From the IMG/VR virus record IMGVR_UViG_2703718815_000003: a stretch of DNA of 64,000 nucleotides. One strand, 5' to 3'. Below the pieces are notes generated by a model. That model worked only from the letters and a program-made list of their open reading frames with translations, made no database searches and was not told the origin of the DNA. This document shows positions 23,280-62,540 of the stretch, in pieces; the first letter of the stretch is position 1, and every line of letters begins with the position of its first letter. The translations under genes were made by a program, and so were the position numbers. This DNA is from a virus (lineage: Duplodnaviria; Heunggongvirae; Uroviricota; Caudoviricetes).

Positions 23280-23374
23280 AGATCCCTCTAAAACACACAG
23301 AGCGCGTCCATGCGCTCTAAAACAACTTGTTTACTGCATCTGCTAACCAACTTGTTTTCTGGGGTGTTTAATTA

Positions 23375-23473
23375 GGTCTGGGCATGTCTTACTAAGCCTG
23401 CTTCCGTATATATTTAATAAGTTACTTATTATTTATATATACAGAAGCAGGTCTTTAAATAAGCTCCCAGACC
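23375..23473. repeat. about 100-bp imperfect inverted repeat; second copy at 54684-54775
   Basis: Arms ggtctggg...cctgcttccgtatatat around an AT-rich centre. Confidence 0.5.
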
Positions 23474-23475
23474 GA

Positions 23476-23742
23476 TTACATCACCAGTAACTTCGCTTTG
23501 GCTCGACCTAAAGTGGTTAACCCAAGAGTCCGGCGGTGATAGCGATTGTCACTGCGTTGGCGCGTATGCCCTTTCTCCACCAGCCCCTTTTTTATCAGAG
23601 CGCGAATTGAGAACTGGATACTTTGCTTGGTTGTCTTGTACGGCAAAACTTCAAGCAATTCGTCCAGATCAAGTAGATGACCTCGCTCATAACCGAGATT
23701 GAGCGTTTTGATGATGTCCTTTTGTTTGTCGGTTAACGTCAT
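23476..23742 (-). CDS. small basic DNA-binding protein (wHTH/RHH-like, candidate regulator or antitoxin)
   Basis: 88 aa, basic C-terminus; last gene of accessory operon, 10 nt after GNAT stop. Confidence 0.4.
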   Translation of the reverse strand: MTLTDKQKDIIKTLNLGYERGHLLDLDELLEVLPYKTTKQSIQFSIRALIKKGLVEKGHTRQRSDNRYHRRTLGLTTLGRAKAKLLVM

Positions 23743-23751
23743 GGCAAATCC

Positions 23752-24642
23752 TTATGCCGGTAAAGCAATTTCTAACGGTTTATCCAAAGGTTGTTTGTCG
23801 AATGCCAGCAGTGGCAACGTGTCAGGCAGTCGACGGCCAAAGTCAGGGTTTCGGTACACACCATACAACGGAGACGTAAAGCTCAGGTTGTGAATGTCCT
23901 TGAGCAGCTTCACAATGCTGGCCTCGTCCACCAGACTGTCGGCAATGTCCTGAATCGTCGTGCCACGATTCCGCCCAGCTTTTGCCAGGGAACTGTTCTT
24001 GTGGTAGTCCGCCACCAGATCACGCAGTGCACGGCGACGACGAGACTCGCTCATTGCGAACAACTCTTTGACGATCGCCTCGTTATCACCCGGGTCGGAA
24101 CGGAAATGGCGCTGGAATACACGCAGTGCACTTTCATAGCTCTTCGGTCGCTCAGGGCGGATGAACTTAAACCCTGCTTTCATGGCGAAGGGATTGTATT
24201 TGCTCATCGAGGACTGGATCTCAATGATTGGCCGGTCATGCATCCTGCTAACCAGGTTAATCATTCGATAAGAGACGCCTACGCCACGATACTGAGTATC
24301 CACAACTGAGCGACTGATCACCGCAAAGTTGTTATTCACGTACCGACCCCAGTACTGGTTAGCCACGGTGGTATTAGTGGTTGGTTTCAACTTAGGAAAC
24401 ATGCGGTGGCGAGGTGCCAGCAGTAGTTTCGGGTAAGCCATAACCACGACGCCCACCAGACGGTCATCAAGTTCGCAGCGATAGTAAGTTGGCGCGAAAG
24501 GTTTGCCGTCTGTTTTGTAGTGAAGCGACTTAAGAGCGTACCAGTCCTCTACAGTTCCCTTTGTGACAGTCATTCGCTCCAGAAAGTCCAGATGACGCGG
24601 AAACTCTTCAGGGCGGTAGCGTTTAATGATGATGTCCGTCAT
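23752..24642 (-). CDS. GNAT-family acetyltransferase-like protein with N- and C-terminal extensions
   Basis: Motif VVDTQYRGVGVSYRMINLV resembles the GNAT acetyl-CoA motif (Q/R-x-x-G-x-G/A); start overlaps ATPase stop. Confidence 0.5.
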   Translation of the reverse strand: MTDIIIKRYRPEEFPRHLDFLERMTVTKGTVEDWYALKSLHYKTDGKPFAPTYYRCELDDRLVGVVVMAYPKLLLAPRHRMFPKLKPTTNTTVANQYWGRYVNNNFAVISRSVVDTQYRGVGVSYRMINLVSRMHDRPIIEIQSSMSKYNPFAMKAGFKFIRPERPKSYESALRVFQRHFRSDPGDNEAIVKELFAMSESRRRRALRDLVADYHKNSSLAKAGRNRGTTIQDIADSLVDEASIVKLLKDIHNLSFTSPLYGVYRNPDFGRRLPDTLPLLAFDKQPLDKPLEIALPA

Positions 24643-25304
24643 GAATGGACCTCATCATGACTACCATTGTGATATTCCACCTTCACGCGTTCTTTGTAGT
24701 GCTTGGTGATCTGCATATCCGGGCGCAGCGCGTTCTTCAGGTCTTCGTGAGTCGTCGCCACCATTACCGTCGCACCAACCTTTCGAGCGGCACGCTGGAG
24801 GTTAGATGCCACAACCTGAGCGGTTACACGGTCGAGAACAGCGCCGAACTCGTCAGCAGCCCACACTTTAGCGCCTGACTCAATCAGTTTGGCAATCTTG
24901 AGACGATATTTCTGACCGTCTGACATTTCAGAAGGCTTGCGAACAAACAGATATGCATCGTTCAGACCAGCCATAGATAACAACCCAAGCGCATCACTGG
25001 TAGTTTTGCCCAGTTGGTCAATGACGTTAACCTCATTATCGAAGGTAAAATCATCGATGGAGGCCACAGATAGCCCTTCATCCTTCATCTGGTGTTGCAG
25101 CTCGCGCAGCACAACGGATTTGCCGGAACCGGATTGGCCGGTAATGTACACCACATCGCCCTGCTTCACTTCCAGCTCCAGATTGTCGTAAAGCGTCCAC
25201 TCTTTTTCGTCCAGGCCAAGCCCGAACGACTCAGCGATTTCCAACGTGCGCGTGGTTTTATTTACGCGTGTCTGAAACGATACGTTGATGATGTATTTGC
25301 TCAT
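24639..25304 (-). CDS. ABC-type P-loop ATPase (stand-alone nucleotide-binding domain)
   Basis: Walker A GQSGSGKS, signature-like SDGQKYRL, Walker B VWAADEFGAVLD; 221 aa with no transmembrane partner nearby. Confidence 0.6.
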   Translation of the reverse strand: MSKYIINVSFQTRVNKTTRTLEIAESFGLGLDEKEWTLYDNLELEVKQGDVVYITGQSGSGKSVVLRELQHQMKDEGLSVASIDDFTFDNEVNVIDQLGKTTSDALGLLSMAGLNDAYLFVRKPSEMSDGQKYRLKIAKLIESGAKVWAADEFGAVLDRVTAQVVASNLQRAARKVGATVMVATTHEDLKNALRPDMQITKHYKERVKVEYHNGSHDEVHS

Positions 25305-26649: not shown

Positions 26650-26666
26650 TTTATTGCTACAATCCA

Positions 26667-26694: not shown

Positions 26695-26731
26695 CCAAAT
26701 AACATACAAAAGGCACTAAGGAAAGAGGTTT

Positions 26732-28291
26732 ATGACTGTTCGGATTGTATCTAACGCAGTTAATGCGCTTATTTCTGGCGCAGATGACAAGGTAAAGCAA
26801 CTGGTGCAACAGATGTTGAGCTACGAAGTCGAGACTGGCGACTGGAAGGGCACAAGCACAATGTTCAACTGGAGTAAAAACTCGTTCCCTGCAGGCTTTG
26901 CCAAGCCTGTAGCGGCGAACTTGAACAAGGCGGGCATCAAATGTGTTCATATCCGCAAAGACAAAGCCCCGGCGCTTGGAAAACCAAATCCGGCGGTTAA
27001 CCCATTCCCATACAATCCTGATTATGCGTATCAGGATCAGACTGTGGAAACACTGGTTCGAGAGGGAATGATGATTGCGCAGATCGCTACTGGTGGCGGG
27101 AAATCTAATGTTGCCTGCAAAGCAGCTGCACGTATCGGTCGAATGACATTATTTTTAACAACCCGCTCTGTTCTGATGTTTCAAATGGCCGAAAACTTCC
27201 AGAGATCCATCGACTACCGCGCCAAAAATGGCGAACCGTGGTTAAAAGACCAAAAGGTTGGAGTCATTGGCTCGGGTGAGTTCCAGGTATCACGACATAT
27301 CAACGTCGCTACAGTTCAAACTCTTGCAAGTTTCCTTGAAGAACCACCACGCGATGCAACACCAGATAAAAAGAGCTACCACCTCAAACGTCGGGAGCTA
27401 GTGAAACGCTTCCTTTCAAGTGTGTCTCTGCTTATTCTGGAAGAAGCGCATGAGTCTTCAGGCTCTAATTTCTATGACATTGCCAGATTATGTGTGAACG
27501 CAGACTATCGTCTGGCGCTTACGGCCACGCCGTTCATGAAGGATTCTACAGAAGCCAACATGCGTCTGATGGCTGTGGCCGGTCGAATTGAAATTAAAGT
27601 CACAGAAAAGTACCTGATTGATCGAGGCATTCTGGCAAAACCGTACTTCCTTTATCATAAAGTTGCTTACAAGCCAGACGAGGTCAGAATCAAGGCGGAA
27701 CTTGCCAACAAACACCTTAATTTTAGAGTAGGTATGAGCACAGCCTACCAAAAGGCTTATCAGTTGGGGATCGTGTATAATTTGGGACGTAATGAGGCCA
27801 TTGTTCGCGAAGCATTGCTCTATAAGCAACATTCTCTCAATTGTATGACTCTGGTTCGTCTTAAACGCCACGGGCAAATCCTGATGGAAATGATGAAAGA
27901 GTCCGGCCTTAGAGTTGACTTCATTTATGGGGAATCGAACCAGTCGACAAGGCAAGCAAAGCTGAACAGTTTAGCGTCTGGTGAAATAGATGTTTTAATA
28001 GGCTCGACTATTCTGGATGTTGGTGTTGATGTGCCAAGCGTTGGTGCGGTCATTCTTGCTGGTGGTGGGAAAGCAGAAGTTGAAATGAGACAGCGTGTCG
28101 GTCGTGGCTTACGAGCCAAGAAGAATCAGGCAAACGTGTGTTTTATCACTGATTTCATTGACATTAGCAACAAATACCTGTTGTCTCACTCTTATGAGCG
28201 AAAACACATCATCGACACCACACCTGGCTTTGCAGAAGGTGTATTGCCTATTGATGGCGCATTCGATTTTGGAGTTCTGAAACGAGATTAG
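26732..28291 (+). CDS. SF2 DEAD/DEAH-box helicase
   Basis: Walker A ATGGGKS, DEAH-like LILEEAHE, motif III TATP, motif VI-like QRVGRGLR; AGGAAAGAGG upstream. Confidence 0.8.
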   Translation: MTVRIVSNAVNALISGADDKVKQLVQQMLSYEVETGDWKGTSTMFNWSKNSFPAGFAKPVAANLNKAGIKCVHIRKDKAPALGKPNPAVNPFPYNPDYAYQDQTVETLVREGMMIAQIATGGGKSNVACKAAARIGRMTLFLTTRSVLMFQMAENFQRSIDYRAKNGEPWLKDQKVGVIGSGEFQVSRHINVATVQTLASFLEEPPRDATPDKKSYHLKRRELVKRFLSSVSLLILEEAHESSGSNFYDIARLCVNADYRLALTATPFMKDSTEANMRLMAVAGRIEIKVTEKYLIDRGILAKPYFLYHKVAYKPDEVRIKAELANKHLNFRVGMSTAYQKAYQLGIVYNLGRNEAIVREALLYKQHSLNCMTLVRLKRHGQILMEMMKESGLRVDFIYGESNQSTRQAKLNSLASGEIDVLIGSTILDVGVDVPSVGAVILAGGGKAEVEMRQRVGRGLRAKKNQANVCFITDFIDISNKYLLSHSYERKHIIDTTPGFAEGVLPIDGAFDFGVLKRD

Positions 28292-28293
28292 TT

Positions 28294-28572
28294 ATGAGCG
28301 AAAAGAAAACAACTTATTGCCAAGTGGCATTGTCTGATAAGGCCAATGAAAAACTTGGAAAATTTCAAATAAAACTCAAAGAGAAAAAAATCAAGATGTC
28401 TAAAGCTGAAGTTATCAATGCCATTCTGGAGACGATGACTATGGCTGAATTTGACAAAGTCACATCTGCTGTTGGGGTTTCCGCTAAGACGCGTGAGAAA
28501 ATCATGCGCATCTATGAAAACTCCAATATGACAAAAAAAGATTTAGAGGAAATACTGAGCAGGTTGCCGTAA
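28294..28572 (+). CDS. hypothetical small protein
   Basis: 92-aa Lys-rich ORF directly after helicase. Confidence 0.4.
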   Translation: MSEKKTTYCQVALSDKANEKLGKFQIKLKEKKIKMSKAEVINAILETMTMAEFDKVTSAVGVSAKTREKIMRIYENSNMTKKDLEEILSRLP

Positions 28573-28637
28573 CATTTCATATTTACCCCCTATCTACTAA
28601 TTCTATGATGTGCTCACTTGTTAGAAAGGAGCACATC

Positions 28638-29204
28638 ATGAGTTGGTTAAAAGAATTATCATTTGTTGACACCACTGGCGCTAAGAAAAATCATTCTTTC
28701 TGGAAAGTCAGCGATCCTTCTGATTTTCTTGTTGGCGCTAATGCTGCTTTTGAATTGCTTAACTTTTATCAACGTTATCCTGAAATGAAACACAGTCCAC
28801 TCCTGTACAGAATAACAAACGATATGAATAGGTCTGGTTTATTATCAAGTGAGTCAGCGAAAGGCTTTTTTAGCAAAATAACGCCACACATATCATTCGA
28901 TGCTGCAAACGAAATTGATTATCTATCCACGAAACCTCAAGAACAATTGTCTGTACCACCTGAGAAAAAAGAAAGACGAATTGCCAGCATTGAAAATATA
29001 TCGAAAGAGCTTCGCACAACAACGTTGAGGCTGCTGAACTTTCTTACGCTACTAAATTGGATAGATGATCAAACATTGATTCCATCAACCGATGCGTTGG
29101 ATAACAGAGTCCTTAGGCTGAACAAAAAATCGCAATTTGGTTTTGTGTTCACCAAAAAAGGTGAAGATTTAATCAAAAGAAAATATAGATTATTGAATGA
29201 TTAA
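28638..29204 (+). CDS. hypothetical protein (AT-rich cargo)
   Basis: Start set to ATG 28638 with AAAGGAG upstream; low-GC region. Confidence 0.5.
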   Translation: MSWLKELSFVDTTGAKKNHSFWKVSDPSDFLVGANAAFELLNFYQRYPEMKHSPLLYRITNDMNRSGLLSSESAKGFFSKITPHISFDAANEIDYLSTKPQEQLSVPPEKKERRIASIENISKELRTTTLRLLNFLTLLNWIDDQTLIPSTDALDNRVLRLNKKSQFGFVFTKKGEDLIKRKYRLLND

Positions 29205-29210
29205 TAGTCT

Positions 29211-29256
29211 ACATGCAGGTGTATGAGAGCACCTGCATGTGACATTCATCACATTT
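29211..29256 (+). terminator. intrinsic terminator
   Basis: 10-bp stem acatgcaggt/acctgcatgt followed by TTTTTT. Confidence 0.5.
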
Positions 29257-29349
29257 TTTGAAGCACACACCTCCGGCTGAAAAAATTTCTTGATTGGCTG
29301 AACGATATTTGTAGGCTTTTCAATTGATAACTAAGGTCGGATACTGCAG

Positions 29350-29838
29350 ATGAGTATTTCTATAAACAAAATAATTAACTCTTTACGACATAAAATATCA
29401 CATGGAAAAGATGTTCTTTTTAAAGAAAAATATTATCTATTCAACTTAGAGCCGTACAAATGTACAAAATTTTATATCACTCGGAACCGTAAATATTCAG
29501 TTTCAATCACAAAAGACATGAAGAAAATCTCTTCAGAAGAGTACTTCATATCACATATTTATATCTACCCATTTAAATTAGAACCATTAAATATAATTCT
29601 TCCTACAATAAAAGGGGTTGAACTTGAAGGTTATACTTTAAGCTCTAACTTTAATGATATGGGTGTACAAAAACCAGGGACAAGGTCATACTACGCCTAC
29701 AAAGTAAAATGCAATAACTACAACGCACTTAACATGCTAATCAGCAAACTTGAAACGGAGATAGTCGAAGGAAATCTAAATGATGATCATGAAAAATTAG
29801 AACAAATAGAAAAACTTAGAAAGTGTGATGTTAAATAA
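29350..29838 (+). CDS. hypothetical protein (AT-rich cargo)
   Basis: 162-aa ORF in low-GC island. Confidence 0.45.
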   Translation: MSISINKIINSLRHKISHGKDVLFKEKYYLFNLEPYKCTKFYITRNRKYSVSITKDMKKISSEEYFISHIYIYPFKLEPLNIILPTIKGVELEGYTLSSNFNDMGVQKPGTRSYYAYKVKCNNYNALNMLISKLETEIVEGNLNDDHEKLEQIEKLRKCDVK

Positions 29839-30453
29839 TTGGATTATCATGATATGAAAATGAAACTTTCGTTACTCCTTGCTTGTATATACCTCCCGGC
29901 GTTTTCCGCCAACGCATTATCAGATTTCGTCTATGACATGCAAAAAACGTACAGCATGTTTACCTCCGAAGACGTAGTAGAATACAAATCACGAGGTCTG
30001 AATCAGCCAGTTTGGTTCAGATTCTCAGACAACGCAGAAGAAACAATACTTAATGGAGGAAAAGAAAGATTACGGTTGCAAATTAACGGGACCGCTGTAC
30101 CAGAAAACGTTAATGTAAGCTCTGACGAAGCCATGAAGCCATCTGGAATTGTTTTAGAAGTTCAAGACGGCACACTTTACTGTGATGAAATGGCTACAAC
30201 AGGTTGCCAAGTAAACATTAGGGTTGGCAATGAAGAGCCTATCGTTACTTACGCCAAGGCTGAAGGGAATACAAGTGGAAAGGTATTGTTTATCGATGAA
30301 AATATCTCAAAACGTATCGTTCGTGACATACAGAAAACAGCTAACTCTAAATCCGTCGATAAAAAAATCTATGTTGAGGTTCCCTTCTTTGTCGTTGGTA
30401 ACAAAGAATTTAAATTTGGGTTGCTGAAAACACCTCTAAGAGTATCAGAATGA
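29839..30453 (+). CDS. predicted secreted protein
   Basis: N-terminal signal-peptide-like MKMKLSLLLACIYLPAFSANA; exact start uncertain (ATGs at 29839, 29854, 29860). Confidence 0.5.
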   Translation: MDYHDMKMKLSLLLACIYLPAFSANALSDFVYDMQKTYSMFTSEDVVEYKSRGLNQPVWFRFSDNAEETILNGGKERLRLQINGTAVPENVNVSSDEAMKPSGIVLEVQDGTLYCDEMATTGCQVNIRVGNEEPIVTYAKAEGNTSGKVLFIDENISKRIVRDIQKTANSKSVDKKIYVEVPFFVVGNKEFKFGLLKTPLRVSE

Positions 30454-30974
30454 GAACATTGGACATCACCTACGGCATACCGGCTGAAGTCTGGCCGCGA
30501 GACTACGAACATGCTGAGAACATACTTATGTTCTGGCGGAAGAACAACATTCCTGTAAGAGTCACGCTTGAAGACGGTCAGGTGTTTTGCATGTACGTTC
30601 AGGGGACAATGCCTTCACGCAATAAGCTAGATTTATGCCCGATTCCATATGATAAAGAAAATCGTATAAGACTCCCACTTGAGCGCATTAGCACAATTGA
30701 ATCAGGTGTAATCGATGGCATTGCTCGCGAGTTCAAAGGTAGGCTAACAATACATCCAGACTATGTTGACAATCAGCCATCACGCCGTGACTTTTTTGCG
30801 ATATGTCGCAAGGCTTATCAAAACGACCAATCTATAAGGGTCTACATGACAGACGGTCGTGAAATAGAAGGGGTGTCAAGAGGCGTTGATGCTTGCCAGG
30901 TCACTCTTAAGTTAGAAGACGGCAGAAAAATACTTGTTTTCTTCGATTGGGTTGAACGAATCCTTCCATTTTAA
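30450..30974 (+). CDS. hypothetical protein
   Basis: 174-aa ORF overlapping previous stop. Confidence 0.5.
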   Translation: MRTLDITYGIPAEVWPRDYEHAENILMFWRKNNIPVRVTLEDGQVFCMYVQGTMPSRNKLDLCPIPYDKENRIRLPLERISTIESGVIDGIAREFKGRLTIHPDYVDNQPSRRDFFAICRKAYQNDQSIRVYMTDGREIEGVSRGVDACQVTLKLEDGRKILVFFDWVERILPF

Positions 30975-31165
30975 ATCTATAAGGGTAATAACCGGCTAAG
31001 TCCGGTTATTATTTTACATGCCATTCATTTAAAACTCTTTCAATGCCACCCCGTATAAATATATAAGGTTAAAGGCCCGAATTGATTATTTATTTAGGGA
31101 ACACCTTCGACGATCTCGCTTTTATTTCTAGGACTTTCATCCCTGCAGAAAATTTAAAAAAACAC

Positions 31166-31194
31166 TTGCAATCTTTTTTCACGTATTGATAATT
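31166..31194 (+). promoter_or_regulatory. sigma70-like promoter
   Basis: TTGCAA - 17 nt - ATAATT upstream of the 31269 gene. Confidence 0.4.
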
Positions 31195-31268
31195 GAACTC
31201 GTCGAAAGCGAGCTGGCTAACGACAGTAAAAAATAAATTCATTTTAATTTTTCGTAAGGATGTCCATC

Positions 31269-31919
31269 ATGGCTAACATTATCATTTCTAAAAAGTCCAT
31301 CATTGAAGCTGCTGCCATTGTATCCGACGAGCTGCGCGAAAAAGCAGATCTGGCAACTCAAACATATAACGAACATTATAAAAATGGTACGCACACAAAA
31401 GCAGACAAAGCAAATATGCAAGCTGCAACCACCAAACTTGCTTACTTCATCAACAACGTCGTAAACGCAGTAGAAGACGAAAAATTATGCTCTGTTTTCT
31501 ACTATGCGATCAAAGCAAGTAAACAAGCGCCAGAAGTATTTTTCCGTGATGCAATGACTAATAGTTATTCACTGGAAAAACTGGTTTATCTGGTTAAATC
31601 CATTAAAGCTGGTAAATGTGTTTATTCCGTCGCTGATATGTCAGGATCTCGTGTGTTCGCTTTAATCGATATGATTAACGACGAGATCGACACGTTCACC
31701 AATGGCGCTGTTTTCGATTTAATGAATGAAGCTAAAAAAGCGTGCGAAATTAAATTGGACGCTGGCTATACTCAAGCCAACCAGCTTATCAATCTTTGCG
31801 AACGTCTTGGACTTGTTGAGAAAGTCAAAGGAATGGGAAGCGCAAAAGCTGGTACGCAGCAATATCGCTTTATTAAAAATGATTTCTATAACTATCTGGC
31901 TGATGCTTTCAAAGCGTAA
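31269..31919 (+). CDS. hypothetical protein
   Basis: AAGGA 8 nt upstream of ATG 31269; 216 aa. Confidence 0.55.
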   Translation: MANIIISKKSIIEAAAIVSDELREKADLATQTYNEHYKNGTHTKADKANMQAATTKLAYFINNVVNAVEDEKLCSVFYYAIKASKQAPEVFFRDAMTNSYSLEKLVYLVKSIKAGKCVYSVADMSGSRVFALIDMINDEIDTFTNGAVFDLMNEAKKACEIKLDAGYTQANQLINLCERLGLVEKVKGMGSAKAGTQQYRFIKNDFYNYLADAFKA

Positions 31920-31932
31920 TTAATGGAATCTG

Positions 31933-31953
31933 GCGCCCACTATGGGCGCTTTT
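31933..31953 (+). terminator. intrinsic terminator (GCGCCCA cta TGGGCGC + TTTT)
   Basis: Perfect 7-bp GC stem followed by T-run. Confidence 0.6.
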
Positions 31954-31966
31954 AAGGAGCTTAATC

Positions 31967-32197
31967 ATGTTTATTCTTATCGCTGGCGTTAACGTGCGCA
32001 ATGAATATTTTGTTAATCGCATCGCTGGGATCGCTGGTTACGCTGGGCGCGCAGTCGAGCTTATAGATGAAACGACGCGCAAAATTGACTTATTGAGCGA
32101 CCAGGAGCGAAAAAAAGCAGACGTGAATGACGCTGATATATTTTTAATGTTAAAAGCGTTTGTAGAAATGGGATTTGAAATCAGTTTACATAAATAA
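31967..32197 (+). CDS. hypothetical small protein
   Basis: AAGGAG 7 nt upstream; 76 aa; bracketed by two identical terminator hairpins. Confidence 0.5.
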   Translation: MFILIAGVNVRNEYFVNRIAGIAGYAGRAVELIDETTRKIDLLSDQERKKADVNDADIFLMLKAFVEMGFEISLHK

Positions 32198-32813: not shown

Positions 32814-33296
32814 TTACACGCCATCAAGGATGTGGATGCGGTTGCTTGCGTATACATTCAGCATAAAGTTAGCGCAAAACAGTTTCCATGTGTCAACGCC
32901 AGCGGTATACGTAATGTTTTTGCATTTAATCGCATTGTTGGCGATCCGCATCCCCTGCGATACTGCTTCATCGTCGGAAAATTTGAACGACGATTGAGTT
33001 TTAATCCAGACAGAAATCTGCGTAGCGAACTCAATCAGCTTGGACTGGCAGAATCGCCCGGAGCGCACCGGAAAGACGAACGTTCCGAACCCAGAATTTA
33101 CCACATACGCTTTCTCAAATACCCGCGAGTAACGACGATTGCCAATGATGTCGCGTGCAATAATGCATTTTTCTTGTGCTGACAGTTCTACCGTCTCATT
33201 GTCGCGCCATGCACCAAGTACTCGTTTTTCAATGTCAGAGAACGTTACAGCGATATTGCCATGTGCGGGTGCGTTTACAGTAGCGATAAAATTCAT
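32814..33296 (-). CDS. hypothetical protein
   Basis: 160 aa; ATG preceded by early promoter/operator motif and AGGA. Confidence 0.5.
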   Translation of the reverse strand: MNFIATVNAPAHGNIAVTFSDIEKRVLGAWRDNETVELSAQEKCIIARDIIGNRRYSRVFEKAYVVNSGFGTFVFPVRSGRFCQSKLIEFATQISVWIKTQSSFKFSDDEAVSQGMRIANNAIKCKNITYTAGVDTWKLFCANFMLNVYASNRIHILDGV

Positions 33297-33302: not shown

Positions 33303-33345
33303 TTCCTTATCGTAAATAACAAATTGTTTTCTTGTTGGTGTTAAT
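33303..33345 (-). promoter_or_regulatory. early promoter/operator motif (GATAAT..CACCAAC.AGAAAACAA.TTGTT)
   Basis: Minus-sense cgataattaacaccaacaagaaaacaatttgttatt about 20 nt upstream of ATG. Confidence 0.45.
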
Positions 33346-33500
33346 TATCGTTGTACGAATAAGGCGTCAAAGTGGAAAGTTGCGGTAGCCGGACGGGAAC
33401 AGGTGGGTTTGTCGGTTGCCTGGAGGTAAGAGGTTGGTGTTTTTAGCCTGCGGGAAACAGGATGGTCATTTAAGGCCACCAGCATTGGTGGCCTTAATCT

Positions 33501-33782
33501 TTAGTGGAGCAGACCGATGTCGATGGTATCCCCTGAATCATCCACACGGATCATCAGCATGGCAAAGGCGTTTAGTGGATAGCTTGCGTGCCATTCAGGG
33601 AAGCGGTCATCTCGCATGAAGTCGGCAATGTCGTAAACGCATCCCTCAAAGTGGAAGAATCGCGTGCTTACCTGCTCGTCATAATCCACATGATCCATTT
33701 CTTGCTGTTCTGTTTCCGGCAAGTCCAGCCATGATTCAAGGAATACATTTTGTGCTTTAGGGGTAATGGTGAAATCAGTCAT
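33501..33782 (-). CDS. hypothetical acidic protein
   Basis: Start set to ATG 33780-33782 with GAGGA upstream; motif copy upstream at about 33795-33835. Confidence 0.5.
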   Translation of the reverse strand: MTDFTITPKAQNVFLESWLDLPETEQQEMDHVDYDEQVSTRFFHFEGCVYDIADFMRDDRFPEWHASYPLNAFAMLMIRVDDSGDTIDIGLLH

Positions 33783-34117
33783 GAGCATATCCTCACTGCG
33801 TAAACATATTGTTTTCTTGTTGGTGTAATTATCGCAGTGTAGATAAGGCATAAAAGAAGTTAATACAGGCTGAATACACAAGAAAGGTTCTGGAAGTTGA
33901 TAGCCAGGTTTCAAACTAACCTTCGGTTATTAAAAGTCATTTAAGACCACCAATGCTGGTGGCCTTAATAATTATCGCCCGATTACGCTAAGGATCTTTT
34001 CCTCAACTGATTTGTTGTTGCGACTAAACTGCCTTGCGTATCTGATGACAGAAGAGGCGTTTCGCTTTCTGACCATCTCGGCTCTCTCCTTCAGGCGTTT
34101 CTTGAAATCGCCCATAT

Positions 34118-34492
34118 TTACCACCAGGCGCAGAAGGTCAGTCTGTTATTGTGAAAGTCGTGGTTCTTAATCAGATCTTCCACAAGCTCTTTCAACTCCC
34201 CCACATCATGCCAGTAACCTTCATCGTACTCCTGACTGCCGAAGAAAAAACCTTCCCGGGTAGGCAAGTACTCTTCGCAATTACTTTCGTTTATGTGCAT
34301 CAAATGAGCCTTCAGAAAACAAATGTCATTCATCGTTAATTCTAAAAGCTCACAATTTTCGACTTCACCTACGTTGCGCTCCATCCACCCAACGAGCGCA
34401 TTGAACTTACGGAAGTAAGCAACCTGCTTTCTGGATGCCTCGTTATTCAGATCGTTTTTAGGCTGTGTCTCGATATAGATATCAAGTCCCAT
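34118..34492 (-). CDS. hypothetical protein
   Basis: Start ATG 34490-34492 with AAGGA upstream. Confidence 0.5.
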   Translation of the reverse strand: MGLDIYIETQPKNDLNNEASRKQVAYFRKFNALVGWMERNVGEVENCELLELTMNDICFLKAHLMHINESNCEEYLPTREGFFFGSQEYDEGYWHDVGELKELVEDLIKNHDFHNNRLTFCAWW

Positions 34493-34609
34493 GATGGTTT
34501 CCTTATTAAGTTGCTTCAGTGAAATCATTTTCACAAATCAGATAAGGCAGAAAACAAATTGTTATCGGGCATAAGAAAATGGCGCGGTTTACGCGCCATT
34601 CAAAGAGGA

Positions 34610-35131: not shown

Positions 35132-35443
35132 TCAGGCTATTGCCATCACTGATGCTCTCTGAATCTCTTGCTGGGCCACGCGGTTAACTTCCATCAAAGC
35201 CAGTTCGAGCTGATGTTCCGGCCACATTCTTTGAAATGCCACCCAGCCTTTTCCACGCTGGCGACGAACATTCATTACATAACGAGTAAAGGTGTTTTTA
35301 TCGAAAGATACCGCTGTTTCACGGAACAGACGAATAGAGGTTCCATTGGCAACGATGTCCAGCAAAGTTAATTGAGCAACCAGCGCAGGCTTCTCTTTTC
35401 TCTTCTGGTCTTTGTCCAGACCAAGAACCAATGATTTTTTCAT
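35132..35443 (-). CDS. hypothetical basic protein
   Basis: Start ATG at 35443 downstream of motif gagaaaacaagttgtttacggag. Confidence 0.5.
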   Translation of the reverse strand: MKKSLVLGLDKDQKRKEKPALVAQLTLLDIVANGTSIRLFRETAVSFDKNTFTRYVMNVRRQRGKGWVAFQRMWPEHQLELALMEVNRVAQQEIQRASVMAIA

Positions 35444-35596
35444 TACAACTCCGTAAACAACTTGTTTTCTCAATGGCGTAAATAATACCAGTAAGAAAAC
35501 GGCTACAAAGCATATTGATCAGGCGCATGAGCGATATGCAGGTTCTTCCCTGCGGCTATAGAGAAATTAAGCCAGCAATGCTGGCTTTGGTTGGGG

Positions 35597-35926
35597 TTAC
35601 TCGAATACTTCAAGAAACTCCTGAACGTCCCAATGCTGGACGAGGTGAAGATAGACCTTAGAAATCACGTCATTTTCGCTATCGCATGTGAAGTAGTACT
35701 TCTGGCTGCGGTTGTATGTGTCCACACAAAATTCGCTCATATCCATAAAGTCAGCATCTTCACCCATGTCGCAAATCATCAAAGCAGGTGCGTCATCACG
35801 AGTCATCAGCTCAAGCACCCACCGCGAATTGATCAGAGTGGAAGACCAACCTTCTAACTCATAAAACTGATCAAACTCTTTTTGAGTTAATTTCTTGATT
35901 TGGTTGATGTCGATATTTGCAAACAT
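35597..35926 (-). CDS. hypothetical acidic protein
   Basis: ATG 35924-35926 with AAGGA; motif aacaagttgttt immediately upstream (track start is TTG). Confidence 0.5.
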   Translation of the reverse strand: MFANIDINQIKKLTQKEFDQFYELEGWSSTLINSRWVLELMTRDDAPALMICDMGEDADFMDMSEFCVDTYNRSQKYYFTCDSENDVISKVYLHLVQHWDVQEFLEVFE

Positions 35927-36279
35927 AAAGCAATCCTTAAACAACTTGTTTTCTCGTTGGTGTTATTATCGCAATAACGCACAGGCGAAAAAGGATTTTA
36001 TTCCGGTGAATGTTGTTTTGGCAGTGAGTTTTCAGGTTCAGTATCGAGTACACTTTTTACATTATTCTGATTTAGTGGCCGAAGGTGGCTGGTGGCAGAG
36101 TAATCCTCTCCCCAAAAACCTACTGAAATCGATTGTGCCCCGTTGGCTGTCTGGCACAATTACGCTGTAGCTGGGCATTCAGAGGGAATCCAGCGGTAAG
36201 CAAGTCCGCCTACGTGAGCGCCTCTCTTCTTCCCGCACATTACAGGTGGGTAGCCGCAACTCTCCCTCTCGCTATACCG

Positions 36280-36430
36280 GTACGCCGCCGTTCCTGAACC
36301 GGCATCGAGCCTTCTCCCGAAATCCACACAGGCAACTCGACCGTTTCCCTGAAAACCTCCAGCCGTTCCCCGAAGGCAACCCAGCCGTTTCTGTAGCGGG
36401 ATGCAACCTTTTCCCTGTATGGACCGAAGG
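36280..36430. repeat. iteron-like direct repeats, cluster 2
   Basis: gccgttcctgaacc, gaccgtttccctgaaaa, agccgttccccgaagg, agccgtttctgtagc, aaccttttccctg. Confidence 0.5.
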
Positions 36431-36599
36431 CTGACCGTAGGGGTTTTACGGGGGATAAAATCAGGAGTTGAATAAATACGAAAAAGGAGGCGACACCCCT
36501 CCTTCCCTCCCCACTTATACATACCTGGCTTCTTCGCTATACATGTTGTGTTTTATCTGTCTCAACCTCTCTATAGGCGTTAATGCTCACTCCTTCCAG

Positions 36600-37330
36600 A
36601 ATGTTCTATACGGCGACTATTTCTGTTGGTGAATTGGGTGTGTTGTTCTCTCTGTCGGTGTATGTGGTTTCGTTCGTTTTGCGGTGGTTCTTCTATGGGG
36701 TGTTCTCGTCGTTTTGGTGATTGTTCTTCTCCGTGTATGGAGTAATGGCAGGTGGGCGATTCCTTTCGTTGTTGTGTTTGAGTTGTTTGTCTGGAGTGTG
36801 TGAAAGGCTTTTGTAGTTATTCGTGTATTGGGTAATGGCATTTCCCGTGATTGTTATGTTTCGTGTCTTTTGGGATTGAGAGAATCCTTGCGGTTACAGG
36901 CTTCGTTGGGGTTTCAGTGATTCTGGTGTTTCTTCGCTGTTTGGGGAATGGCGTGTCGTGGGTATCGCGCGTATGAATGTTTTCGGATTGCCTGTGAAAG
37001 TTAGGTTGGTTGTCCGGTAGCCTGGGGAGAAGAGGTGGGTTGTTTTTGGAAATGGCATGTGTGTTATTTAGTTGTTTTGTTATGCCTGAAAATAAGTTGT
37101 TTATATGGTTGTGTAACGCAACGGGAGCGATTTTGAGCGTGTGTTTTTGTTGGTAGTGTGTTGGGTCGTCTGTGGTGAAAATTGGACGCTGTGGCGCTGT
37201 CTGCTGCGTAGAGTTGCGGGTATAAGAAGTGATGTGTGAAAACGTCAATTTTTTAGACCAAATCGGGTGAAAGCGTTGACGTTTCGTTGATCTGTTATTT
37301 AGTTGTTTTCTTATTTGTATAAACAACCAT
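36600..37330. repeat. GT-skewed (plus strand) degenerate tandem repeat tract, unit about 90-100 bp
   Basis: Plus strand almost entirely G+T; units end in g(a/g)gtaATGGCA / ggaaATGGCA at about 36743, 36833, 36943, 37043. Confidence 0.5.
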
Positions 37331-38216: not shown

Positions 38217-38516
38217 TTACCAGTTCCAGCACTCAAGCCCTTCAACGACCGGCGCACCACAATCAAAATGTACAGAGTCAAAGCCTACATCAAGTACTTT
38301 CTGAATGTTAGCAATCGCGCCTTCGGATATACCATATCGACGCAAGTCGTCTTTCCAGACATCATTCTGTAACCCGGCGTGAACAATACAACCGCCATCA
38401 ATTTGTGAAACCCAATCCAGCTCATTGCTTGCGATCATGAATCGGCGAGCATCTTCCTCTGATGTATGAGATGAACTGATCAATGCCACCTGGTAGGCTT
38501 GGGTAATGTTCAACAT
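38217..38516 (-). CDS. hypothetical protein
   Basis: 99-aa ORF; two copies of early motif upstream/downstream (38520-38600). Confidence 0.5.
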   Translation of the reverse strand: MLNITQAYQVALISSSHTSEEDARRFMIASNELDWVSQIDGGCIVHAGLQNDVWKDDLRRYGISEGAIANIQKVLDVGFDSVHFDCGAPVVEGLECWNW

Positions 38517-38677
38517 TTCAACTACTCCAAAACAAGTTGTTTTCTTATGTGGCTTATTATCTCAATCAACAAAAGGTAGAAAACAAATTGTTTTAGGGCT
38601 TGTGTAAATCAGGAGGGATTGTGTCTATATGAAAATGCCCAGCGTGTTGCCGGGCATTGTGAAAAATGGTTGTTTAG

Positions 38678-45887: not shown

Positions 45888-46490
45888 TCACTCTCCTTTG
45901 ATGCGAATGCCAGCGGCGCGGGAATCATTCCATCGCTTTACTTCTTCACGAATTACGTCAATGCATTCTTTCGAATCCATTAGGTAATCTTCATCAAAAA
46001 GACGTTCCTGTTCGTTTTCTATCGCAACAATGATTGCTTCAACTAACTTTTGTGCCTGAGAATCACTTTCTAACTCTGCTATGCGCTTACTCCCATCCGA
46101 GATAACACCTTCGTAATATTCACGCTGTTCGTTGAGTTTTGATTTTGTCTCCTCAAGCTCAACACGCAGCTTCTCAAGCGTTAGGACCATCTCTACGTTC
46201 TCCTGCTCAAGACGTCGGATGTGTTGCTGTCTTTTATCCAGTTCGTCCAGCAGTGCAATCACATCGGGATCACTAGCATCAACTACTGTTACGCGTGATT
46301 TTTCATAATGTTCGTCTGCAAAAGTACGCCCTATCTTAAAATATCCGTCATCACCCTCACCGGAACAGGCATAAACAACATGTGCTCCAGATATGCGCTG
46401 TATTGACATTTCCTCGCCACAAACAGAGCATTTAGGCGCTGGTTTTGGTGAATAACGTTCACGTAACGTCAGGTAGTAAATCTCATTCAC
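45888..46490 (-). CDS. zinc-ribbon + coiled-coil protein
   Basis: CSVCGEE...C motif then long coiled coil. Confidence 0.5.
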
Positions 46491-46942
46491 TGTTTATTTC
46501 CTTTGCGAAGCTCAGCGGCGAAGGCTACTGCGTGATCATGATGTTCAAGTGTGTATGCGCACTCAGCAAACATCTCCACGCCCTGCGCACGTACTTCAGC
46601 CAGAAAAGCATCGGTGGCTGGAGTCTCCGTTAATTCGCTAACCCAATTATCTCCGTGTTCCTCGGCACACATCGCATCGAATGCTCGCTCAGATTCTTTC
46701 AGGGCTGCATTCTCCGCCGCTAATGCGTCTCTTTGCGCCCGCAACTTCTCAATTTCGGCAGCCATGTAGTAACCAACCATAGCGAAGACGGCAAAAGAGT
46801 TGTCTGCCTCATCAGGCGACACTGAGGCCATTAGCAGGCCATCGTAAAAATCGTGACTCCCATTGGTGATCGCCACCGCATAGGAGTCGTGGTTCTCGCG
46901 CTTGTGAATGAGAACTACGGGATTTTCGATTTTGTTACTCAT
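46487..46942 (-). CDS. hypothetical protein
   Basis: 151-aa ORF. Confidence 0.5.
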   Translation of the reverse strand: MSNKIENPVVLIHKRENHDSYAVAITNGSHDFYDGLLMASVSPDEADNSFAVFAMVGYYMAAEIEKLRAQRDALAAENAALKESERAFDAMCAEEHGDNWVSELTETPATDAFLAEVRAQGVEMFAECAYTLEHHDHAVAFAAELRKGNKQ

Positions 46943-47080
46943 GTGTTTTTCTCTTCTTTGCTGTTACATAAGCACTACCAAGTGCTGGTTTATTTTCACA
47001 AATAAGAAAAGGTAGAAAACAATTTATTTAAGGCCATAAGTTATGGCCTTTATTTATTCATGCAGAAGGATTTGTAGCGC

Positions 47081-50968: not shown

Positions 50969-51538
50969 TCAATTAGAGCTTTGAAAGACTTTGTGTGGTT
51001 GTGTTGCGAGGTTATGTCGATGGCTTAACTCACGCATCATGTCTTCAAGCCGACTCTTTGTGTCGTCGAGTTGGTCGGCCATTGCTCCCAAAAGCTGACG
51101 AACGGCCATCGGATCATCGCTGTTTAGTGATGGCATTTTATAACCCGCCTGAGAAGACATAAGATTGAACGCAGACATCAACATCGTTAGAGAGGATTTA
51201 AGCCCAGCAATTTCACGATCTTTGCTGGCAATAATCGCCTCACTCTTGTTAGTGTCATCAGTTCGTTGAGTCTCGCTCACCATATCCAAAGTCGCCTGCA
51301 ACTTATCAGCGCGCTCTTTTTCAGCAAGATAATGAACACCGAAATGATGTGCTAAAGCTACAACCTGAGTTGGCTCTTCAAAGGTGGACTCAAAATTAAG
51401 TGCTGTAACCACTCTCTCAAATATGGAAACGTCTTCTATTCCTCGAAGAATGGCTAACATTTTGACCAGTTCATTAGCATCCATTTCTTCGAATAAGGCG
51501 TTTTGTTCATCAGCTATCGCTTTGCATTTCTTGCACAT
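50969..51538 (-). CDS. hypothetical protein
   Basis: 189 aa; early motif gccaataagaaaacaacttgtttaagc upstream. Confidence 0.5.
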   Translation of the reverse strand: MCKKCKAIADEQNALFEEMDANELVKMLAILRGIEDVSIFERVVTALNFESTFEEPTQVVALAHHFGVHYLAEKERADKLQATLDMVSETQRTDDTNKSEAIIASKDREIAGLKSSLTMLMSAFNLMSSQAGYKMPSLNSDDPMAVRQLLGAMADQLDDTKSRLEDMMRELSHRHNLATQPHKVFQSSN

Positions 51539-51677
51539 GTGTTTTTCCTAATGCTTAAACAAGTTGTTTTCTTATTGGCTTTATTGTGATGTGGCATAAA
51601 AGGGGAGCAAGCTAAACGTAAAGGTGCAAACTCTCTATTTCGGTCAACGAAACACAAGGGCCATTTGGCCCTTGTCA

Positions 51678-51836
51678 TTAACACGTTGCTTTACGGACTA
51701 GCGGATAAGCGAAGTAGATCGCCAGACCAATGAGGACGCCATCAGAAATGACAGACATCATCTTTCCCGTAAAATCCACCAACACCGCCATCACCAGAAG
51801 AGCAATGACGATCACAAGCCGGAATCTCTCAAGCAT
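51678..51836 (-). CDS. small membrane protein (52 aa)
   Basis: Hand translation MLERFRLVIVIALLVMAVLVDFTGKMMSVISDGVLIGLAIYFAYPLVRKATC; below ORF-track threshold. Confidence 0.3.
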   Translation of the reverse strand: MLERFRLVIVIALLVMAVLVDFTGKMMSVISDGVLIGLAIYFAYPLVRKATC

Positions 51837-52261
51837 TAGAGATAAGCATCCAGTGACAACTGAAGCGCCTGGGCGATCTTTTTCAGTGCCTGCTCTTCTT
51901 GTTCACCAATGCCGTCCTGATCGGCAATATCAAGGCACAGACACAGAACATCGACCGCCTCTGGAGTACCCGCAATATCAGACAGCTCACGAATAGCCTG
52001 TGCATTAGCAGAACGAGGGGACGCTTCGTAACGAGCACGGATATTGGCGCTCATTTGGGCAATTTCACCAGCAAACGGAGAAAACGCAGGCAGAGCTGCA
52101 ATTGTCTTCTCAAGAATGGCAATTTCTTTTGCGTCACATGTGCCGTCGGCATAGGAGATCATGTACGCGCCCCACACGGTGGCCTCAACCGCATCACGGT
52201 TCTCCATTTTTTTGACTTCGATAACAGCTTTACGAGTTTTCTTTTTGAAGAAACCTAACAT
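51836..52261 (-). CDS. hypothetical protein
   Basis: 141 aa; early motif upstream. Confidence 0.5.
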   Translation of the reverse strand: MLGFFKKKTRKAVIEVKKMENRDAVEATVWGAYMISYADGTCDAKEIAILEKTIAALPAFSPFAGEIAQMSANIRARYEASPRSANAQAIRELSDIAGTPEAVDVLCLCLDIADQDGIGEQEEQALKKIAQALQLSLDAYL

Positions 52262-52354
52262 GTGCTTTCCTTTTATTATTTGTCAAAACAAGTTGTTTTC
52301 TAATTACATAAATTGCTTACGCAGAGATGGTCAATGCATATGCACTAACAGCCG

Positions 52355-60243: not shown

Positions 60244-60386
60244 TTATTAATTACGTGAGTTTACATTTATTGAGAGAACAAGACCAGACAGATAAAAAAA
60301 TGGTGGCCATAGGCCACCAAAACGAATAGTCATTCCAGAGTTTTATTACGCATGTTAAATATACACAGATAGATAACTACCTACAA

Positions 60387-61259
60387 TTATTTTTTGATCA
60401 TTCCGTACATTGCTGAGGCTTTAGCTTGCTCAACAAAGGAGGATAAATCGACATCACTATAGGTTGGAGACTTCAGAATCTTTCCATCGGAAATTCGAAA
60501 ACCGATCATCTTATCGGTGCCATCAGCATGGCGGAATCCCAGATCTGAAGAGTCGTATTTGCAGTTGGCCACAGCCTGGCGACGTTCCTCAACATCAGCA
60601 GGCCATAATTTTGTCATGTTAGACCGATGAATTTCGCCAACCAGCTCGACGACATTGATACCGAGGAAATCAGCCAGTCGATAAGTCATCATGCACGCCA
60701 CATAGATTTTGTTCATTACACGGCGCAGTTCCTGAATCAGCTCAGAATCCTTAACAGTCTTCTTCTCAAGTTTATCTGCCAGCTCTTCGAGCATACATGA
60801 CGCCTCACGAGCTTCCTGAAATGGCATTGCCATATCATCGAAAACAGTGTTACCGGGCACAAAAATTGTCTGCATAAAGCGATCAATGCTCTGTTCCTGC
60901 GTGTAATAGGTCATGCCGGTAGAAATACCACCTTTGATGGAGACCATCGTACCAACACCAACGTATAAAAAGTCGGCCATTGCATCCAGCAGTTGCTCAA
61001 TATCCCCATTCATTGCGGCTGGAATACCTTCCACTACAGCTTCTTCATGAATCAGGCTTGCACGGAGACGAAGCAGCTCTGGTGTCGGCATAACGCGTCT
61101 CGGATGCTGGAAGAGTTCATGAAACTGATCGACCATCTTGTAAATACTTTCAGTGGCTACACCATGGCCTTCATGCAACTCATATGGTTCTGGCTTAAAT
61201 CCAATGAGTCGATCGGTGGCAAGTTTCAGGTGGTCAGTCAGTTTGGTAAAGTTCATGCT
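60387..61259 (-). CDS. all-alpha NTP pyrophosphohydrolase-like protein (MazG/dimeric dUTPase-like, candidate)
   Basis: Two helical segments with E..EE...D/E patterns (LIHEEAVVEG..IEQLLDAMAD; VELVGEIHRSN); start set to MNFTK ATG at 61259. Confidence 0.4.
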   Translation of the reverse strand, partial: SMNFTKLTDHLKLATDRLIGFKPEPYELHEGHGVATESIYKMVDQFHELFQHPRRVMPTPELLRLRASLIHEEAVVEGIPAAMNGDIEQLLDAMADFLYVGVGTMVSIKGGISTGMTYYTQEQSIDRFMQTIFVPGNTVFDDMAMPFQEAREASCMLEELADKLEKKTVKDSELIQELRRVMNKIYVACMMTYRLADFLGINVVELVGEIHRSNMTKLWPADVEERRQAVANCKYDSSDLGFRHADGTDKMIGFRISDGKILKSPTYSDVDLSSFVEQAKASAMYGMIKK

Positions 61260-61333
61260 AGTTTTGTTCCTTCTTAATTCTTGTGATCCATTGTGGCCCA
61301 GCGTTGCCAGGCCACATAATGCTTTGTATCGGT

Positions 61334-62476
61334 TTACAGGTCTGCAAACTGGCTTAGAGAAGCCTTGTCCACGGTAGAATCGATCTGACCTACCAGATAT
61401 GTGCTTTGCTCTGCCTCTTGTGGTGCAATTTGCAGTGTGTCGGTTAACAACCACTTGTTCATCCAGACCAGCGGATCTGTGGTAACTTCTGGAAATAAAG
61501 CCTTCAGGCCAAGACGATTCATAGCCAGATTGGTGCGGTATTTTACATAGGTCTTCAGAATATCCGCGTTTAAACCAATCATCGAACCGTCTTTGAAGAG
61601 ATAGTCTGCCCAGTTCATTTCTTGTTCGGCGACTGATTTCATGGTGTCGTAAATGACGTTTTCTTCATCAGCAGCAATCTCTTTCCACAATAAACCTTCG
61701 CGACCGGTACGCATGAAGCGGATCATGCGTTCAGTTCCTTCGCAATGCAGAGCTTCATCACGGGCAATAAAGCGCATAATTTTGGTGTTACCCTCAAGCA
61801 ACTTCCGTTCGCCAAAGGCAAACGTACATGCAAAACTTACATAGAAACGGATCGCCTCAAGCGCATTAATGGACACCAACGTGCGGAAAAGCTGACGGTG
61901 CAAAGGGTATGGCTCCCAGCCATATTCATTTACGTACAGACGTTCAAACTCTTTCTCACCTAACGACTGGCGCTCGCAGGTCATCCCATAAAGCCTGTCA
62001 TATTCAGCAGAGATACTGATCGCTCGGTTGATGATTTCTTCATCCGTAACAATACCGTCAAAAACAATGCTCGGATCGTCCACCATGCCACGAATAATGT
62101 GGGTGTAGCTGCGGCTATGGATAGTCTCAGAGAAAGACCATGTTTCAACCCACGTTTCCAGTTCAGGAATAGAGATAAGCGGCAGCAGCGTTGCATTTGG
62201 GCTACGTCCCTGAACTGAATCGAGTAACGTTTGATAACGGAGATTGCTCAGAAAAATGTGACGTTCGTGGTCCCGCAGCTTCGTGTTGAAGTCGATACGA
62301 TCGCTCGAAATATCAACTTCTTCCGGCCGCCAGAAGAAAGACAATTGACGTTCAATCAACTTTTCAAAATCACGGTATTTTTGCTGATCGTAACGTGCCA
62401 CGTTGACAGATTGTCCGAGGAACATAGGCTCTTTGGTTGCATCATTAGCACCCAAACGGAACGTTGAATATGACAT
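61334..62476 (-). CDS. nrdB: ribonucleotide reductase small subunit
   Basis: Class Ia R2 features (FFWRPEEVD, iron-ligand E/H pairs); diverged from host type. Confidence 0.9.
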
Positions 62477-62489
62477 GTGTTTTTCCTTT

Positions 62490-62540
62490 TTCTTTTTTGG
62501 TGCGTTTAAACAAGTTGTTATCTTATGTGTTTAAACAAGG
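62490..62540 (-). promoter_or_regulatory. early promoter/operator motif upstream of nrdB
   Basis: Minus-sense taagataacaacttgtttaaacgcacc about 25 nt upstream of nrdB ATG. Confidence 0.45.

Follow-up and report, generated by a model that had tools for sequence, protein, structure and literature searches.

The stretch of DNA analyzed here (hereafter the window) comprises 64,000 nucleotides of a virus of the Caudoviricetes (IMG/VR record IMGVR_UViG_2703718815_000003), and the subject of this work is a 17-nt near-palindrome, AG-AAAACAA-N-TTGTTT-A, that recurs along it. A 6-kb probe from the window matched Escherichia phage Cyrano (OV696614.1) at 97.5% identity over its full length, with weaker matches to Salmonella phage SSU5 and to Klebsiella phage-plasmids. 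The window is of the SSU5-like phage-plasmid type, as is Cyrano, the SSU5-like phage-plasmid pLF82 of E. coli LF82. Structural and lysis genes occupy positions 1-23413, and 23414-64000 align to Cyrano from position 108379 down to ~67800. Nearly all genes lie on the minus strand, with the exception of a low-GC block at 26.7-32.2 kb. Between 33 and 38.6 kb, each small gene forms its own unit of promoter, motif, open reading frame (ORF) and terminator.

The repetition had been described from the letters of the window as a 35-40-bp element upstream of many early genes, pairing a -10-like GATAAT with a palindrome (the original prediction). The motif is present at all 11 places listed there and at both places listed as partial copies, and an extra copy was found in a non-coding stretch at 37087-37103. 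When up to two mismatches were allowed, GAAAACAANTTGTTT gave 27 strand hits in the window, corresponding to ~15 loci, against an expectation of 1.44 and a maximum of 5 in 100 dinucleotide shuffles. The half-site AGAAAACAA alone occurs 15 times versus 1.5 expected, and the second half is nearly always attached to it. With a conservative ORF call, 12 of the 15 loci fall in the non-coding fraction, which makes up 13.4% of the window (P ~1e-8). Two of the three “coding” loci are artefacts of over-long ORFs, and the third, at 30926 inside a gene related to fljA, is probably there by chance. The expectation that a whole-genome scan would exceed background was borne out in Cyrano, with 11 sites at no more than one mismatch (0.1 expected) and 19 at no more than two (1.2 expected). 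The element was also said to occur on both sides of metG, and a real, non-random and gene-proximal signal is indeed found there. The presence of the near-palindrome upstream of at least 11 genes in the window is very probably the mark of one regulon.

To describe the motif, 57 sites from five genomes were aligned. Position -1 is A in 47/57 sites and position 0 is G in 51/57; each position of AAAACAA is kept in 54-57 sites, and after one position that can be any base, TTGTTT is kept in 50-57 sites, followed by A at position 15 in 40 of the 57. The dyad covers positions 1-14, as in the proposed palindrome AAAACAA-N-TTGTTTT; position 15 is A where T would be expected, and the 5' AG is not mirrored by a CT at the 3' end. 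The orientation of sites was chosen partly by the AG flank, so the counts of the left half are somewhat inflated, but this choice explains neither the A at position 15 nor the absent 3' CT. Because its flanks and position 15 break the dyad, the motif is an intrinsically asymmetric near-palindrome. The longer version with GATAAT and CACCAAC is complete at just three places, 33316, 33801 and 35938, and incomplete at 35454 and 38529; the other copies have the 17-nt core alone in common. The repetition itself is therefore real, but the 35-40-bp unit is not what the copies have in common, and the GATAAT-CACCAAC part is a trait of one subfamily of small-gene cassettes (33.3-38.6 kb), not of the element itself.

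Two arrangements were distinguished. In class B (32 of the 57 sites), the AG half lies 5' in the sense of the gene and the motif ends 10-41 nt before an ATG preceded by a Shine-Dalgarno sequence (no more than 23 nt in 25/32); the original prediction had placed the element 10-25 nt upstream of the ribosome-binding site. A -10-like hexamer whose second base is A and whose sixth is T stands in register in 22 of these 32 sites, ending 12-14 nt ahead of motif position 1; an extended -10 TG one base upstream of the hexamer is present in 17 of them, where chance would give 1 in 16. The proposed pairing with a -10 is supported for these forward copies. The logo upstream of the motif reads ttG.gaTAAT, with no information upstream of the TG, and a sigma-70 consensus scan found no TTGACA-like -35 element 16-18 nt upstream of the -10 at the motif sites. 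If transcription starts 6-8 nt after the hexamer, the class B motif would span approximately +5 to +21, a zone in which repressors commonly bind.

The second arrangement, class A, comprises 10 sites in four of the five surveyed genomes. Here the same asymmetric motif is inverted; the preceding gene's terminator comes directly before it, TGTGAAAAT or GATAAT follows 18 nt downstream, and the ATG is 53-69 nt away. The copies that had been taken as partial, at 34540-34575 and 46985-47020, belong to this arrangement; both are complete (34549-34565 and 47014-47030), inverted and upstream of a -10. The same applies to the second of the two copies at 38520-38600 (38578-38594), which had been read in gene sense. 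The inverted copies keep the same intrinsic asymmetry. In three cases, 38529/38578 in the window and 88318/88369 and 93661/93712 in SSU5, a class A and a class B copy bracket a -10 with their centers 51 bp apart. Overall, 32 of the 57 sites were scored as forward and 15 were left unclassified, several of them forward-like, so that forward copies make up about three quarters and inverted ones ~20%. Since the class A copies lie upstream of the -10 and past the T tract, outside both predicted mRNAs, they point to a reading at the level of DNA.

Other copies precede core genes without any promoter cassette: terS and nrdB in the window, and parA, dnaB and cobT in the relatives. Some of these sit in short spacers with no terminator upstream, and the spacer before dnaB in the relatives is only 43 nt long. 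The targets thus include terS, which opens the late operon, the nrdA-nrdB spacer and a tciA-like gene, together with parA, the dnaB helicase gene and cobT in relatives, and because of this span the motif does not simply mark an early regulon, as had been proposed.

The motif is kept throughout the family. SSU5 has 21 sites and the Klebsiella element pJN2-26 has 15, and partial loci of two distant relatives contain 2 and 6. Our survey of 80 IMG/VR loci around the fljA homologue gave 641 sites in 1.42 Mb, or 0.45 per kb, where the Cyrano simulation leads one to expect ~0.011 per kb. Even in elements with a FljA of only 54-58% identity the motif has the same sequence, and the 17-mer is kept at orthologous genes despite diverged flanks and is also carried by unrelated accessory genes. 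The invariance of the core within unrelated flanks and in diverged elements argues for selection on the 17-mer itself.

An RNA hairpin or a known RNA family was ruled out as the identity of the motif. Eight putative leaders folded no better than their shuffles (z -1.1 to +1.1), one-sided substitutions seen in the Cyrano and SSU5 comparisons were never accompanied by a compensatory change in the other half, and no Rfam family matched anywhere in the window. In the transcriptome of the LF82 lysogen, with a median of 9.8 over Cyrano, genes preceded by the motif are near background: terS 7.1, cobT 7.8, CYRAN_58 5.7, nrdB 12.9, the tciA-like gene 7.0, CYRAN_101 7.5 and CYRAN_110 6.7 (PMC9928086). 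The only clearly expressed motif-bearing gene is parA, at 49.8 (PMC9928086). Background-level expression behind the motif is compatible with negative control. A literature search returned no description of the motif or of gene regulation in the SSU5 family, and no 5'-end data for SSU5-like elements.

The individual copies in the window and the genes considered as sources of a reader are collected in Table 1.

Table 1. Copies of the 17-nt motif in the window, the terS-leader hairpin and candidate reader genes
Feature	Position	Strand	Context
Motif copy 1, terS leader (AGAAAACAAGTTGGTTA)	23344..23360	-	Orthologous copy in Cyrano, SSU5, pJN2-26, L170
Motif copy 2, terS leader (AGTAAACAAGTTGTTTT)	23319..23335	-	25 nt from copy 1; 39 nt before terS ATG
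Intrinsic-terminator-like hairpin and T tract	23298..23319	-	Between the terS-leader motif copies and the terS ribosome-binding site
Class B copy	33316..33332	-	19 nt before ATG of gene 32814-33296; -10 GATAAT at 33344-33349
Class B copy	33801..33817	-	18 nt before ATG at 33782; extended -10 TGcGATAAT at 33828-33836
Class A copy, strong half on + strand	34549..34565	+	After terminator hairpin; 18 nt upstream of TGTGAAAAT, -10 of gene 34118-34510 (-); orthologous place kept in SSU5, pJN2-26, L094, L096, L170, L174, L176, L177
Class B copy	35454..35470	-	10 nt before ATG of gene 35132-35443; extended -10 TGgTATTAT ends at 35482
Class B copy	35938..35954	-	11 nt before ATG of gene 35597-35926; extended -10 TGcGATAAT, hexamer 35965-35970
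Orphan copy in 1.1-kb A/C-rich region	37087..37103	+	Orthologous copy in Cyrano, SSU5, pJN2-26, L096
Class B copy, perfect palindrome	38529..38545	-	12 nt before ATG of gene 38217-38516; extended -10 TGaGATAAT, hexamer 38556-38561
Class A copy, perfect palindrome	38578..38594	+	Upstream of the -10 at 38556-38561; center 51 bp from center of the 38529 copy
Class A copy after terminator hairpin	47014..47030	+	18 nt upstream of TGTGAAAAT, -10 of gene 46487-46942 (-); orthologues at SSU5 85601 and pJN2-26 21772
Class B copy	51556..51572	-	17 nt before ATG of gene 50969-51538
Class B copy, perfect palindrome	52285..52301	-	23 nt before ATG of tciA/terB-like gene 51836-52261
Copy in nrdA-nrdB spacer	62507..62523	-	30 nt before nrdB ATG (61334-62476); no -10 in register, no terminator upstream
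Candidate 1, FljA homologue (PF03614)	30450..30974	+	Predicted two tandem Sm/Hfq-like modules
Candidate 2, 88-aa winged-helix protein resembling the LexA DNA-binding domain	23476..23742	-	Immediately upstream of the terS control region
Candidate 3 (weak), 92-aa protein	28294..28572	+	~12-fold above background in LF82 lysogen

The leader of terS stands somewhat apart from the other copies. Its terminator-like hairpin lies 12 nt before the ribosome-binding site, and the same order of motif and then hairpin is found in SSU5 and pJN2-26; in RNA, the two motif copies can pair with each other (z = -2.0). This layout suggests an antitermination-type control of the late genes.

We favor, at about an even chance, a model where the motif is a DNA operator or roadblock site for one element-encoded repressor that holds dispersed transcription units silent. 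It is ranked first because the operator and roadblock roles explain all classes of copies, and the points counted for DNA are the dyad, the conserved inverted class A copies outside the predicted transcripts and the pairs that bracket a -10. From these we infer that a protein would bind the motif, that it would do so on DNA and that its effect would be negative. One trans-acting factor encoded by the phage-plasmid would read the 17-nt site on double-stranded DNA and silence at least 11 transcription units in the window and 15-21 per genome. Bound at approximately +5 to +21 of a class B site, the protein would block open-complex formation or promoter escape at extended -10 sigma-70 promoters that lack a -35. 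At class A sites it would cover roughly -45 to -31 of a different extended -10 promoter, and at some promoters one copy of each class, 51 bp apart, would bracket the -10. In core operons with no promoter in register (the nrdA-nrdB spacer, the spacer before dnaB in relatives and the terS leader), the site would instead be a roadblock against read-through.

Several observations weigh against this repressor model. The -10 assignments are consensus matches; a simple sigma-70 scan misses the promoters at the motif sites because they have no -35. Copies without an in-register promoter lie only 18-30 nt before start codons (nrdB, and dnaB in relatives), a position that fits translational control at least equally well. 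The lysogen expression data are non-discriminating since most lytic genes are silent with or without the motif. The gene of the 88-aa winged-helix protein, itself a candidate reader, is at background in the LF82 lysogen (7.8), which is hard to square with a lysogenic silencer. Finally, the regions ahead of the fljA-like, 92-aa, uvsW and winged-helix genes contain no motif, so there is no sign of autoregulation.

The same copies could instead be read in RNA. The 5' leader would expose a single-stranded AGAAAACAANUUGUUUA just 5' of the Shine-Dalgarno sequence, and the FljA homologue would bind it, block ribosome binding and destabilize the mRNA, as Salmonella FljA does on fliC mRNA. The tight spacing between motif and ribosome-binding sites would fit such a mechanism, as would the copies in spacers without a promoter in register, the unstructured leaders, the asymmetry of the motif and the conservation of a predicted Sm-like protein whose family has a known action on an mRNA leader. 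However, a single-stranded RNA site has no need of a near-perfect dyad, the class A copies (~20% and conserved) are inverted and lie outside the predicted transcripts, and the Salmonella fliC leader, with ACATCAAGTTGTAAT, agrees at only 10/14 positions, which is not significant, while leaders of the E. coli type do not match. We therefore rank this reading second, after the DNA-bound repressor, and hold it as a tentative alternative of rather low probability. Its existence and the intrinsic asymmetry of the motif also mean that the single dimeric regulator of the original prediction goes beyond what was found. A wider form of the idea, built on the predicted fold, is that the FljA family would be the global post-transcriptional regulator of SSU5-like phage-plasmids, reading the motif on 15-20 mRNAs per genome, with the Salmonella FljA-fliC switch as a domesticated single-target offshoot; we consider this unlikely.

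A positive effect was also considered. A lytic-cycle activator or antiterminator, for instance the winged-helix protein encoded upstream of terS (the place of RinA in staphylococcal phages), might bind the motif, switch on the promoters that lack a -35 and carry RNA polymerase past the terminator of the terS leader. The missing -35 elements would suit an activator, as would the class A centers near -38, a classical activator position, the intrinsic terminator behind the two copies of the terS leader, and the adjacency of the winged-helix gene, which is silent in the lysogen like its putative targets. Yet about 75% of the copies lie downstream of the -10, where activators normally do not work, extended -10 promoters need no activator, and the copies without an in-register promoter would be left unexplained, all of which makes this model improbable. 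Still more doubtful is an origin with no dedicated regulator, in which the motif would mark cassette boundaries left as one promoter-leader module was repeatedly duplicated and recombined, shuffling small accessory genes in the manner of PeSL cassettes. The 35-40-bp CACCAAC version is confined to the variable small-gene region (33-38.6 kb), where gene content differs among Cyrano, SSU5 and pJN2-26, one cassette there has near-identical terminators around it, and in SSU5 two copies flank a reverse-oriented inserted gene. The core genes terS, parA, dnaB, cobT, nrdB and tciA, however, share the 17-mer alone within otherwise unrelated flanks, and the 17-mer does not vary even where the proteins of the elements are down to 54% identity. 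Recombination may have come as a further consequence and not as the cause.

If a protein reads the motif, the 88-aa winged-helix protein at 23476-23742 appears, by its sequence features and position, to be the most likely candidate in the window. Orthologues of this protein gave weak full-length matches to the LexA DNA-binding winged helix in 4/4 cases tested. The protein is found only in SSU5-like elements, with 75-89% identity across the family and an invariant recognition helix, which matches the invariance of the motif. In staphylococcal phages, the late activator RinA is encoded directly upstream of terS.

The FljA homologue is the other main candidate. It matches PF03614 at 270 bits (cut-off 24; E = 9e-81), with residues 5-171 corresponding to profile positions 1-170, and its gene belongs to the core of all SSU5-like elements found, those of Klebsiella, Enterobacter and Cronobacter among them; Klebsiella is classically non-flagellated. 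Its modeled fold is predicted to consist of two tandem Sm/Hfq-like modules without a helix-turn-helix. Yamamoto and Kutsukake 2006 and Aldridge et al. 2006 reportedly found that FljA binds the 5' untranslated region of fliC and blocks translation. This account of FljA action is consistent with PMC2652032. We scored 83 enterobacterial fliC leaders with the weight matrix of the motif. In Salmonella and Citrobacter, ACATCAAGTTGTAAT lies 23 nt before the ATG, matches 10 of 14 motif positions and shares the core CAAGTTGT; the Salmonella-type leader scores -6.2 versus at least 15.6 for true sites, at a background of 1.7e-3 per position or ~0.09 per leader. No match to the motif was found in fliC leaders of the E. 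coli type. The Salmonella-type leader is thus the best biological match but not a significant one, and the link to fliC was kept as a lead only. Relatives of FljA and of the winged-helix protein were found in SSU5-like elements only, and the motif was present in every such element examined; because all three co-occur in all members examined, phylogenetic profiling cannot separate the candidates. The third candidate, the 92-aa protein, diverges to 36% identity.

Other readers were tried and rejected. The CI-like repressor of Cyrano, CYRAN_45, has a divergent control region without the motif, and SSU5 lacks the gene yet carries 21 copies. Being UmuD/HumD-like and devoid of a DNA-binding domain, the S24 peptidase at 42007-42396 (-) does not qualify as a LexA-type repressor. 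Host-factor boxes (KdgR, IHF, PhoP, OmpR and LexA) differ in spacing or orientation, a judgment made with no formal test. Autoregulation was dismissed as well, since orthologues do not keep the motif-like stretches at 30926 in the fljA-like gene and at 28305, early in the 92-aa gene, and these were taken as chance.

Some further features of the window and its relatives were noted. The S24 peptidase gene is among the top-expressed Cyrano genes in the lysogen (148 versus a median of 9.8), and Cyrano is induced by ciprofloxacin. The only apparently chromosomal match to FljA, P0074, is on a 5.2-Mb E. coli contig, and its sequence looks frameshift-damaged. The same contig carries P0212, an orthologue of the 88-aa protein, and P0074 therefore probably belongs to an integrated or mis-assembled SSU5-like element and is not a chromosomal fljA. 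The sole plus-strand block of the window, at 26732-32197 (+), has a GC content of 0.37-0.40. Two ORFs at 29350-30453 (+) replace a divergently oriented lipoprotein gene of Cyrano, and in the LF82 lysogen the uvsW-like helicase gene and the 92-aa gene of this block are expressed 4.7-fold and 12-fold over background.

One small-gene cassette is enclosed by near-identical terminator hairpins at 33470-33497 and 33941-33968, with a 12-bp stem (TTAAGGCCACCAGCATTGGTGGCCTTAA) from which the second copy is one base off. The region at 36160-37330, ~1.1 kb without a convincing ORF, is strongly A/C-rich in gene sense (GC skew +0.13, AT skew -0.22) and contains direct repeats of 20-30 nt, one full copy of the motif and two half copies (ATAAGAAAACAACTAAATAACA). 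Its position is kept in SSU5, pJN2-26 and L096, and a comparison of the region with Rfam gave no match; an origin is one possible identity and a long non-coding RNA another. A long, perfect hairpin rich in AT (~24 paired bases, z = -5.5) separates the 88-aa winged-helix gene from the terS promoter at 23395-23455, where the Cyrano record starts and ends; it may serve as a terminator in both directions or mark a site connected with the genome end.

Among clinical E. coli, Salmonella (Typhi included), Klebsiella and Enterobacter, phage-plasmids like SSU5 and pHCM2 are frequent. Antibiotic resistance genes are present on some phage-plasmids (PMC9600943). A single invariant 17-nt signal before replication, nucleotide-metabolism, partition, packaging and accessory genes gives a handle on their circuit, in that it defines a regulon, provides a bait for its regulator and predicts which genes switch together upon induction. 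If the FljA homologue does read the motif, this would explain why a “flagellin repressor” is a core gene in non-flagellated hosts, and the FljA family would gain a fold and an ancestral role.

Among known systems, the C1 operators of P1 offer a close parallel in layout. P1 is likewise a phage-plasmid with many dispersed copies of one 17-bp asymmetric site, and these overlap or follow promoters of unrelated operons and are sometimes paired. The consensus of the C1 operator is ATTGCTCTAATAAATTT. By eye, with no scan made, our motif is visibly unrelated to this consensus; it is also nearly palindromic, and no C1 homologue was seen. The stoperators of L5, bound by the repressor gp71, are again short asymmetric sites present in tens of copies in short intergenic spacers, mostly in one orientation relative to transcription and also in places without a promoter. 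They differ in that ~20% of our copies are inverted and many stand at a fixed distance from an extended -10; hosts and sequence are unrelated, and no gp71-like protein was identified. In RK2 (IncP), the palindromic operators of KorA and KorB are found at many promoters of the plasmid backbone, adjoining the promoter core or distant from it, and tie replication, partition and other modules into one regulon. KorB, however, is a ParB-family protein whose OB sequence is unlike our motif, and the two ParB_N proteins of our element are silent in the lysogen.

Salmonella phase variation by FljA and fliC shares with our element the PF03614 protein, a site just 5' of the ribosome-binding site and the core CAAGTTGT, but here there would be at least 15 targets against one, the fliC match is not significant and inverted copies cannot be explained at the level of RNA. 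The PeSL cassettes of T4-type phages and the start-associated sequences of Cluster K mycobacteriophages are similar as short conserved modules before many small genes in variable regions; our motif differs from them by forming no stable stem-loop and by its presence at conserved core genes and in inverted orientation. The best description by likeness is thus the dispersed operator regulon of a temperate element, resembling the P1 C1, L5 and RK2 sites in layout and belonging to none of them in sequence.

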